17,168 nt of DNA. It comes from Pseudomonadota bacterium. GTDB lineage: Bacteria; Myxococcota_A; Bradymonadia; Bradymonadales; GCA-2716585. Each line of letters opens with the position of its first letter. Positions within the stretch are counted from its first letter, which is position 1. The notes beneath the pieces are model-generated. The model saw only the letters and a list, made by a program, of their open reading frames with translations, was not told the origin of the DNA and ran no database searches. The stretch covers positions 1 to 17,168 of the forward strand of contig SYOX01000365.1 of assembly GCA_005804885.1 (NCBI GenBank), written 5' to 3'. The translations under genes and the position numbers were made by a program. This document shows positions 1,720 to 8,898 of the stretch, piece after piece.

Positions 1720-3684
1720 ATGGTCAAGGGGGTCGTGCTGGAGTCTGGGGTGTCGGCGCCGCCGATGAGGTCGTGGTCTGATCCGGCGCGGGGTTGGCTG
1801 CCCGAGGCCGAGGCGCTGGCGGATGAGGCGGTCGCCGTCGGCGGCCGGGGCGAGCCCGAGGGGTTGAGGGGGCTGCTGGAGGGGATGGGCGCGCCGGCGT
1901 TGGACGTGCTGGTGACGGCGATGTCGGGCAGGGCGGCGCTGCTGGGCCTGTCGCGGGGGTGCGCCTTCGCCCACCACGAGCTGCGCGGTCGCCTGCCGAT
2001 GCCCAAGGGGCTGGAGCCGGAGATCGCGGTGTGGGGCGACGGGACGGTGCCGGTGTGGAACGACGGCGTGCTGGAGGAGCCGAAGTACTTCTCCTTCTTT
2101 CAGGACGCGCCCGTGCCGGTCTTCAACCCCAACCATCGCCGCAAGTGGCGGGCGCACGAGCTGCTGCACGCGGCGCAAGGCTTCTTCTGGAACCCCGAGA
2201 TGTCGAGGTTCTCGTTCTACCTGGGCGCGAGGCTCAACGAGCTGCTGCCGGTGGTGCACTGGTATGGCTTTGACGAGGCGGCGCGGCCTCGGTGCGCGGC
2301 GCACGAGGGCGCGGCGTCGGATCAGGAGTTCTGCCGCGGCTGCGAGGCGGCGGCGCGGCCCTGGTGGGAGATGGACGCGGGCTGGAGGGCGGGCCAGCGG
2401 GAGGCCGCGGTGGGGTGTTTTGAGCGCGGGCTGGAGCACTTCGAGGCGGAGTGGTCGGCCTGCGTGCGGGAGCTTGAGGGCGGCCGCCGGGTCAGCACGC
2501 CGAGGCCGGGGCTGGACGCCTCCAGCGACGCGGTGGGCTACCTGCGGGGTCACTGGAACCGGGTGACGGCCTGGAGCTTCGGGTCCTGGGTGGAGATGTT
2601 CCTGGTGGACGGCGAGGATTATTTTTCGACGCTGGAGGGGGCGATGGGGCGGGCGGCGCGCACGGCCAGAGCCTTGACGGGGGGGCGATTGGAGCTGTCG
2701 TCGGAGGATTTTGCGGCGCGCAGGGCAAGGCGGGTAATTCAGGACATTGCGGGGCGGTCGCTGCTGGCGATGGAGTGGCTGGAGGAGGGCAGCGCGGCGG
2801 CGGATCGGGTCGAGGGGGCGCTGATGCCGGCGCTGGAGCGCGCGGCGGACGTGTGCGGCGACCTGATGCTCGATCCCGACACGGCCGACGCCGCCGAGGT
2901 CGTGGCGGAGATCCTGGGGGCGTGGAAGCGCTGCGCGCCCTCGCTGCCGGAGGTCGTCCGCAAGCCGCTCGGGGTGCTGGGCTACCTGTGGCCGGACATG
3001 GAGGGGTCGCTGGGGCTGTCGCCGTCGACCTTCGCGGCGGCGGCGACGCCGCAGCTCGTCGAGGGGGTGCGCGGCGCGCTGCCGCTGCTGTGCGACGGCC
3101 TGGAGGCCGACGGGGAGGGGATCGACGCGCTGGTCGGGCGCTTCGCGGGCTCGGCGGCGGCGCAGGAGGGCGGGACCTTGGGGGAGCGCGCGGCGAGGTG
3201 GCTCAAGGCGCAGTCCCACCCGCGGGCGGGGCTGGCGGGGGTGGAGGTGATCCTGGCCGCCGCGCCACAGCTGGACGAGGAGGCCGAGCTCTTCGGGGTG
3301 CTGCCGGACTCGCCGGATGACCTGATCGACGGCCAGGGGGTGCTCAGGCGCCACGCGACGATGCGGCGCTGGTCGATCCCGGCGTCCGTGGCGACCCAGG
3401 TGATCGGAGAGCTGCCCGAGGGCAAGCTGCCCGAGGGCAAGCTGCCCGAGGGCAAGCTGCCCGAGGGCGTCGAGGGCGGCGAGGGCGGCGAGGGCGGCGA
3501 GGTGGAGCTGGCGGCGATCGTGGCCCGGGGTGAGCCTCGCGTGATCGTCGTCGACGAGGCCGTCGGCGCGGCGCTGGCCGCGGTGGAGGGCGAGGTCGGC
3601 GGCGACCGCCTTGAGGGGCATGACCCCGAGGTGTGGATGCCGCTGCTGGAGAACGGCTTCCTCGTGTGGCTGCCGACGCCTTAA
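1720..3684 (+). CDS. Hypothetical cytoplasmic protein (654 aa) with an HELLH (HExxH) motif, a C-x2-H-x9-C-x2-C cluster and C-terminal (LPEGK)x4 and (GGE)x3 tandem repeats
   Basis: Long ORF with balanced amino-acid composition, not the R/P/G-rich junk of antisense frames. ATG at 1720 is preceded by GGGGAGGGGG (RBS) at 1707-1716; ends TAA 3682-3684. No signal peptide. I do not recognise the family. Confidence 0.6.
   Translation: MVKGVVLESGVSAPPMRSWSDPARGWLPEAEALADEAVAVGGRGEPEGLRGLLEGMGAPALDVLVTAMSGRAALLGLSRGCAFAHHELRGRLPMPKGLEPEIAVWGDGTVPVWNDGVLEEPKYFSFFQDAPVPVFNPNHRRKWRAHELLHAAQGFFWNPEMSRFSFYLGARLNELLPVVHWYGFDEAARPRCAAHEGAASDQEFCRGCEAAARPWWEMDAGWRAGQREAAVGCFERGLEHFEAEWSACVRELEGGRRVSTPRPGLDASSDAVGYLRGHWNRVTAWSFGSWVEMFLVDGEDYFSTLEGAMGRAARTARALTGGRLELSSEDFAARRARRVIQDIAGRSLLAMEWLEEGSAAADRVEGALMPALERAADVCGDLMLDPDTADAAEVVAEILGAWKRCAPSLPEVVRKPLGVLGYLWPDMEGSLGLSPSTFAAAATPQLVEGVRGALPLLCDGLEADGEGIDALVGRFAGSAAAQEGGTLGERAARWLKAQSHPRAGLAGVEVILAAAPQLDEEAELFGVLPDSPDDLIDGQGVLRRHATMRRWSIPASVATQVIGELPEGKLPEGKLPEGKLPEGVEGGEGGEGGEVELAAIVARGEPRVIVVDEAVGAALAAVEGEVGGDRLEGHDPEVWMPLLENGFLVWLPTP
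3412..3500 (+). repeat. In-frame tandem repeats: (ctgcccgagggcaag)x4 (15 nt; LPEGK) followed by (gagggcggc)x3 (9 nt; GGE) inside the 654-aa hypothetical
   Basis: Directly visible perfect 15-nt repeats at 3412-3471 and 9-nt repeats at 3472-3498. Confidence 0.9.

Positions 3685-8898: not shown

Follow-up and report, generated by a model that had tools for sequence, protein, structure and literature searches.

Major vault protein (MVP) homologues are known in Myxococcales, Cytophagales and Oscillatoriales (bioRxiv 10.1101/872010). The MINT of PARP4, a module through which a partner protein reaches the vault, is a domain with a fold of its own, whose binding site lies between two MVP monomers (preprint 10.64898/2026.05.01.722283). 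We analyzed a 17,168-nt stretch of a Bradymonadales genome (GenBank assembly GCA_005804885.1, contig SYOX01000365.1, positions 1 to 17,168 of the forward strand), referred to hereafter as the window, in which an MVP homologue (gene B) and a non-homologous neighboring gene (gene A) carry, at sites 3.3 kb apart, a near-identical 15-nt tandem repeat encoding xPEGK. Gene B shares the Vault repeat, shoulder and long cap-helix architecture of the described bacterial homologues, but it alone among the MVP homologues listed has a K-rich, xPEGK insertion of ~40 residues in a variable N-terminal loop. The resemblance of this locus to PARP4 MINT and TEP1 is limited to the general idea of a partner carrying an MVP-binding element; in contrast to MINT, the element shared here is a disordered, non-conserved repeat and is present in MVP itself.

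Coding minisatellites in disordered linkers offer a closer comparison. Both arrays resemble them in their multiple-of-three period, head-to-tail copies, P/E/G/K make-up, compound-repeat flanks and lineage specificity, but differ from the usual case in that a near-identical unit occurs in two non-homologous neighboring genes and in that copy number is not polymorphic among five near-identical assemblies. Template switching and short-patch conversion are likewise comparable in the nearness and direct orientation of the two tracts, a 9–10/12-nt quasi-repeat and 91% tract identity, although here flanking identity is absent, the first codon differs and the event itself would have to be inferred. 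We favor, at a rough probability of 0.4, two parallel slippage-type linker expansions with no functional or physical link of protein A to the vault.

Two PEGK-encoding arrays in non-homologous genes

The features on which the comparison depends, all on the plus strand, are the following.

1720–3684, + strand: gene A, 654-aa protein with HExxH, E174 and a predicted DUF2063/RiPP-recognition-like C-terminal module
3412–3471, + strand: A array, (CTGCCCGAGGGCAAG)x3 followed by CTGCCCGAGGGC, perfect copies encoding LPEGK LPEGK LPEGK LPEG
3462–3502, + strand: 9-nt repeat CGAGGGCGG, 4.6 copies encoding VEGGEGGEGGE, directly 3' of the A array
6214–8898, + strand: gene B, bacterial major vault protein homologue, 894 aa, assigned from Pfam, the PDB and an AlphaFold2 model
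6722–6753, + strand: 12-nt xxDK repeat encoding SDK SADK KADK, just upstream of the B array
6760–6831, + strand: B array, CAG/CAT/CAG/CGG each followed by CCCGAGG(G/A)CAAG, encoding QPEGK HPEGK QPEGK RPEDK, then a degenerate fifth unit

The tandem unit that defines the arrays is CCNGARGGNAAR, and the 12-mer encoding PEGK is CCCGAGGGCAAG. The 13-mer CCCGAGGGCAAGC has six exact copies, three in gene A (starts 3415, 3430 and 3445) and three in the MVP gene (starts 6763, 6778 and 6793); the latter has an extra copy with one mismatch, which starts at 6808. Sequence positions and open reading frame (ORF) phase confirm the original prediction that this 13-mer is identical in both genes, in frame and at the same codon phase, with every unit beginning at codon position 1. 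Gene A had also been described as carrying four copies of its repeat; the repeat is present, but as three full units plus a 12-nt fourth. Tandem Repeats Finder (TRF) places it at 3410–3468 (period 15, 3.9 copies, 100% matches) and the B array at 6759–6820 (period 15, 4.1 copies, 91%), and also detected the 9-nt and 12-nt repeats listed above. The encoded peptides read LPEGKLPEGKLPEGKLPEG from residue 565 of protein A onward and QPEGKHPEGKQPEGKRPEDK from MVP residue 183 onward. The four B units occupy 6760–6819 and are followed by the degenerate fifth unit, CTCTCCGAGGTC (LSEV), which aligns with L(A/S)EV in MVP homologues. Both arrays thus have the head-to-tail copies, in-frame placement and period divisible by three of a slippage-type minisatellite.

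Alignment of one array with the other gives 91% identity over 56 nt, and no direct-repeat family of the window is larger. The longest exact block common to both is the 14-mer GCCCGAGGGCAAGC, found in two B units. The first codon of the unit is variable, being CTG in A and CAG, CAT or CGG in B. Comparison of the flanks found that similarity ends at the array edges, with none beyond the units. A shared insertion sequence had been proposed as a source of the match; only the units match, however, and the flanks are each gene's own conserved sequence, which rules out a shared mobile or insertion element. The neighboring 9-nt GEG repeat has a GAGGGC core in common with the A array (direct-repeat families D8 and D10).

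Gene A has its array inserted in the short, variable and acidic linker that joins the body of the protein to a small C-terminal domain. In homologues this linker comprises 5–15 variable residues, and in many it reads L-PE--G, so that a local PEG seed is plausible; the closest relative (locus L006 in our numbering of retrieved loci and contigs) has GAG CCC TTC GAG GGG at the site. The B array lies in a hypervariable loop between the blocks 'AVIKPA' and 'P.DLSVGKL.IIRGT.VSFYIPPTG', the length of which ranges from ~10 to 50 residues in homologues. In AlphaFold2 models the predicted local distance difference test (pLDDT) score is below 52 at residues ~570–590 of protein A and below 50 at MVP residues 165–206, and both regions are low-confidence coil parts of otherwise well-predicted models. 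PEGK repeats were found in 0/119 listed homologues of A and 0/119 listed homologues of MVP. As is characteristic of minisatellites in disordered linkers, each array therefore sits where homologues vary in length, is absent from orthologues and falls in predicted disorder. Both arrays are lineage-specific insertions in hypervariable, predicted-disordered linkers. The proposal of selection for a common PEGK linker or for vault docking finds no footing in these comparisons, since the arrays are missing from all listed homologues and both occupy indel-rich loops of predicted disorder.

Each array, we propose, would be a separate lineage-specific, in-frame 15-nt minisatellite born by replication slippage inside an intrinsically disordered, indel-tolerant linker, the two host proteins being functionally unrelated. 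The linker of protein A would join the body to the small C-terminal domain, and the MVP loop would lie between two N-terminal beta-repeat domains. Both arrays would have settled on xPEGK, which is built of four disorder-promoting residues, and a GC content of 72% across the window would nearly force CCC-GAG-GGC-AAG, from which a DNA identity of 13–14 nt and a common phase would follow. The match would then reflect parallel growth of a motif seen repeatedly among bacteria of high GC content. What the data show is the anatomy of the arrays, their lineage specificity, the predicted disorder, the codon expectation, the recurrence of the unit in unrelated taxa and the lack of synteny; that the arrays were generated by slippage, and in two independent events, is our inference.

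Rarity of the unit and origin of the match

Dinucleotide-preserving shuffles of the window gave an expectation of 0.11 13-mer matches, and none of 200 shuffles reached seven. The argument that GC bias is insufficient to explain the match stands at the peptide level, where xPEGK arrays are rare, but it does not extend to DNA identity once the peptide is given. CCC, GAG, GGC and AAG are the preferred codons of the window, and the probability of CCCGAGGGCAAG given PEGK is 0.29 from window codon usage, so DNA identity adds little beyond peptide identity. The codon after the unit starts with C for L, Q, H and R alike.

Several points weigh against independent origins. Among 185,579 species genomes, seven have two adjacent units with the array codons, at one locus apiece, and the metagenome collection adds five loci. 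When 1.84 billion representatives were searched by phmmer with the 30-residue B array, 12 proteins matched at E <= 0.001. Given this global rarity of the unit, it is improbable that a single window would see two independent origins 3.3 kb from each other; our rough estimate for a second same-unit array in one 17-kb window is 1e-4 to 1e-3. Synonymous choices are also identical in both arrays (Pro CCC and not CCG, Gly GGC and not GGG), for which window codon usage gives an estimate of ~0.2 under independence. The ancestral MVP loop as seen in L003, one of the closest MVP homologues, reads EEP-LAEV and offers no obvious PEGK seed. The hairpin-prone property is confined to the A array, which folds as single-stranded DNA with z = -3.3, compared with z = +0.44 for the B array; a hairpin-prone unit was accordingly ruled out as a common cause, as only the A array folds strongly. 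Finally, copy number of the PEGK arrays does not vary across the five assemblies, a comparison weakened by their 99.9% identity, and an 18-nt array at 17001–17090 does vary between assemblies, unlike the PEGK arrays. By the same rough reckoning, a same-unit pair is unlikely for one window but not so across a large scan.

The 12 loci recovered from genomes and metagenomes are all in unrelated proteins, within disordered stretches rich in P, A, E and K; among them are lipoprotein linkers, an E2-like linker, Planctomycetota proteins and a protease of Prc-like type. The exact A unit CTGCCCGAGGGCAAG occurs in a Prc-like lipoprotein (L019) and the exact B unit CAGCCCGAGGGCAAG in a Planctomycetota protein (L009), and arrays of A/T/P/G/K-PEGK occur in eight other unrelated proteins. 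One of the phmmer matches (P0243) has (LPEGK)6(LPDGK)6. Thus, xPEGK is a recurrent but rare linker unit, and identical DNA units do arise independently.

Alternatively, the match could have been produced by local copying at the DNA level, in which one array arose by slippage and the other gene then received a portion of it through a microhomology-mediated template switch or short-patch ectopic gene conversion between sites 3.3 kb apart, the recipient subsequently diverging or being homogenized. We regard this as a possible but tentative explanation. The 91% identity over 56 nt, the identical synonymous codons and the closeness and common orientation of the arrays would all be accounted for, as would the global rarity of the unit, no other scanned genome having two loci, and the lack of a further copy in an additional 23 kb of this organism. 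In addition, the 3' edge of the B array carries, in register, ancestral junction codons that resemble the A-type unit CTG CCC GAG GGC, with agreement at 10/12 positions for CTG GCC GAG GTC of L003 and at 9/12 for CTC TCC GAG GTC of the window, as expected of a microhomology anchor. Repeat exchange or gene conversion, as originally suggested, thus retains the tract identity, the 3.3-kb spacing, the common strand and the 10/12 junction in its favor, but it lacks flank identity. Further difficulties are that the first codon of every B unit differs from the CTG of A and that the longest exact common block is 14 nt. RecA-dependent conversion usually needs far more homology than this. Moreover, the A array has an ancestral PEG seed to itself, the compound-repeat context is particular to each array, and the proximity of the two is partly a selection effect, only 17 kb having been viewed. 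No genomes intermediate between the window organism and its nearest relatives were found. We give parallel expansion a slight preference over copying because of the local seed in A, the separate compound-repeat contexts, the differing variable codon, the lack of flank identity and the recurrence of the unit in unrelated taxa.

The window may also have caught two members of a genome-wide xPEGK family, maintained by a lineage-specific mutational bias or by linker selection, an explanation that we consider doubtful. Repeats abound in the window, for which TRF gave 36 rows in 17 kb; five of the 12 loci are labeled Deltaproteobacteria or Myxococcales (L012, L013, L015, L018 and L019, L018 being a copy of L013); and L019 has the identical LPEGK unit in a third unrelated protein. 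However, the remaining 23.4 kb available for this organism contain neither the 12-mer nor PEGK, every other array-bearing genome has exactly one locus, and the representative of the source species, if it is in the genome collection, gave no match. The genome-wide count of the 13-mer proposed earlier was run on ~40 kb of the organism, in which no copy lies outside the two arrays. L019 itself (SXGS01057355.1, 8956–9036) is a Prc/Tsp-like metagenome lipoprotein with NPEGK-LPEGK-LPEGK-PPEGQ, and the tetranucleotide signature of its contig correlates with that of the window organism at r = 0.83. The source of L019 may be a related lineage, and this would be a hint that the clade as a whole tends toward the repeat.

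Protein A, the MVP homologue and their neighborhood

Several analyses identify gene B as an MVP homologue. Its product matches the Pfam families MVP_shoulder (6.2e-20) and Vault_3 (7.3e-11), both better than curated cut-offs, and MVP chains of the PDB by phmmer (1.6e-16 over residues 512–830). The AlphaFold2 model has serial N-terminal beta-strand repeats (14–400), a shoulder and a single 135-residue helix (679–813), such that sequence and model together point to vault repeats in the N-terminal half followed by a shoulder and then a long cap-helix. Gene B has thousands of homologues, with identities of 50–66% to many of those in Myxococcota, and many are labeled 'major vault protein' by JGI; the nearest relatives among the matches listed are only 66% identical. 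Rfam and tRNA scans of the window returned nothing, and hence no vault-RNA-like gene.

Gene A gave no Pfam, NCBIfam, PADLOC or PDB sequence match, with no Pfam match even at E <= 10. Its 218 detected homologues are hypothetical proteins from Bradymonadales and other Myxococcota, the nearest among the matches listed being only 50% identical. In a 60-sequence alignment of the family, H146, E147 and H150 (HExxH) and E174 are invariant, an arrangement of motif and downstream acidic ligand expected of an HExxH metallohydrolase; the model of protein A found no structural match among known metalloproteases. The predicted fold is similar to that of DUF2063/RiPP-recognition proteins, RiPP denoting ribosomally synthesized and post-translationally modified peptides, which were represented in the comparison by NGO1945 (PDB 3dee) and TglI (PDB 8hci). 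Protein A differs from these in having no sequence-level Pfam match, and thus no membership in the DUF2063 profile, in a large extra N-terminal region with the invariant HExxH, and in adjoining a Methyltransf_32 gene and not one for a DUF692 enzyme. At the level of fold, we read protein A as a putative metal-site enzyme with a DUF2063/RiPP-recognition-like module, and the model points to peptide or RiPP-type chemistry.

These properties bear on the suggestion that the PEGK motif is a short linear motif, serving for docking, tethering or recognition by a modifying enzyme, that ties protein A to the vault. The genes are neighbors with a rare motif in common, and eukaryotic vault partners do use dedicated MVP-binding modules. 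However, no listed homologue of either family has the motif; none of the relatives examined (L003–L008, L028 and L029) has the two genes linked; ~6,320 MVP homologues were scored, against 218 for A; and the vault-binding module known is a folded domain rather than a disordered repeat. The closest relatives of A have a methyltransferase neighbor, and the fold of A suggests peptide or RiPP-type chemistry. No recognized MVP-interaction module, such as MINT, was found in protein A. We consider such a functional link very improbable. That the motif tethers an HExxH/RiPP-recognition-like enzyme to or inside the vault, or marks both proteins for one modifying or binding factor, would be a long shot. 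The view of protein A as a vault-associated or cargo protein accordingly receives no backing from the relatives examined, in none of which A and MVP are linked, or from the folded nature of MINT.

Phylogenetic linkage, a check that had been proposed, is not borne out in the relatives examined. MVP was not found downstream of A in the two closest relatives of A (L006 and L007/L008), nor anywhere within 4.7–10 kb in L006, L007, L028 and L029; in Bradymonas sediminis (L028) and a Myxococcales metagenome-assembled genome (L029), A has other neighbors and no MVP within 10 kb. Among the closest MVP homologues examined for neighbors (L003/L004 and L005), no A gene lies within 10 kb on either side in L005 or downstream in L003, of which 1.8 kb upstream was covered. 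In sample ERZ650152 the best homologues of A and MVP are on different contigs of similar coverage, which indicates that the two families can coexist unlinked. Conserved co-localization of A and MVP is therefore not seen in the relatives examined, and both the A–MVP adjacency and the shared repeat are specific to the window organism.

Three further genes adjoin or separate the pair.

286–1515, + strand: Methyltransf_32 gene (Pfam 4.6e-18), directly upstream of gene A
3747–4655, - strand: alpha/beta hydrolase gene, between A and MVP and outside the repeat phenomenon
4825–5982, - strand: gene for a 385-aa repeat-containing protein with no Pfam match, between A and MVP and outside the repeat phenomenon

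The order Methyltransf_32 then A is kept in L006, L007/L008 and L021–L023 but not in B. sediminis (L028) or L029. PADLOC and NCBIfam returned no matches for A, the methyltransferase, the 385-aa protein or MVP. The 385-aa protein has 15-nt and 33-nt tandem units at 5681–5843 that encode IPDAG-type units, and an N-terminus that appears lipoprotein-signal-like by eye; a MEGAHIT contig (L002) starts inside the repeat of its gene. Elsewhere in the window, a 598-aa DnaE-like ORF (12991–14787, + strand) has only the DNA_pol3_alpha core and finger Pfam domains, is much shorter than replicative DnaE or DnaE2, and is preceded by ORFs of 155 and 110 aa. An imperfect duplication of ~100 nt (11019–11193) follows the Cupin gene and overlaps the 3' end of a 214-aa gene; it comprises a 40-nt block of 93% identity at 111-nt spacing and a 21-nt block of 95% identity at 95-nt spacing, with no Rfam match.

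The locus in other assemblies and its significance

Public assemblies were queried with the exact A protein and the downstream lipoprotein. Both arrays are base-for-base identical in ERZ27257033, ERZ27257035, GCA_005777485.1 and GCA_005800485.1, and ERZ27257032 carries the identical B array only. Three contigs carry the window locus with both arrays and are 99.9% identical to it, one of 95 kb (ERZ27257033), one of 102 kb (ERZ27257035) and SXMC01000275.1 (GCA_005777485.1); in GCA_005800485.1 the genes are on separate contigs, A on SYFH01000539 and MVP on SYFH01000480. The same arrays in at least five independent assemblies indicate that an assembly artefact is not the cause.

That an assembly or binning error made one of the arrays, or joined the two genes, has a negligible probability. 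It could draw on one MEGAHIT contig of ERZ27257032 (L001; k141_1098685, 11658–11758, corresponding to window 3377 onward), which leaves the window 35 nt before the A array. The window version, however, runs on 3' of the A array into the conserved C-terminus of family A, which makes the end of L001 the anomaly, and the 14-nt common blocks are too short to mislead an assembly at k = 141. The identical locus in independent assemblies rules out this explanation. L001 is 99.6% identical to the window until it diverges, continues for 100 nt of unrelated coding-like sequence with nothing similar within the window, and then ends, yielding a seemingly truncated 558-aa protein A (P0001). This end probably reflects either chimerism at the tip of the contig or a minor strain with a rearrangement.

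Other differences between assemblies were noted. The variable 18-nt array at 17001–17090, which changes in copy number between assemblies of one population, is a perfect repeat of five copies, GGATCGACGCCGTCGGCC, in a minus-strand gene that extends from 16484 to the end of the window; the product is 392 aa long in L025 and 410 aa long in L026, with breaks in the alignment at 17036/17055. Upstream of the PMSR gene, the gene content of the 95-kb contig (L021 1–7880) is entirely different from that of the 102-kb contig (L022 1–5460), one having SOD, DJ-1 and Oxidored_FMN and the other CbiA, a response regulator, MCP and a PAS kinase, which reflects either a strain-level rearrangement or a mis-join. 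Within its first 260 bases only, at positions 137–262, the window differs from every other assembly of the locus by ~10 mismatches and two indels, which look like low-quality contig-end sequence.

Taken together, the original observation is genuine, reproducible and statistically unusual, and it most likely represents ordinary lineage-specific low-complexity linker repeats. As ordinary disordered-linker minisatellites, the repeats themselves matter little. Of mild interest is the question of whether one array served as the template for the other: if the unit was copied between neighboring non-homologous genes, the locus would be a clean natural case of microhomology-templated coding-repeat transfer in bacteria. 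The tether reading, if true, would provide the first candidate client of a prokaryotic vault. Vault function is made no more testable by the present findings. The locus does offer a well-assembled bacterial MVP homologue, present in five assemblies with contigs of ~100 kb, and near it a confidently modeled protein family that combines an invariant HExxH with a DUF2063/RiPP-recognition-like module. The MVP homologue and family A are each worth study on their own account.

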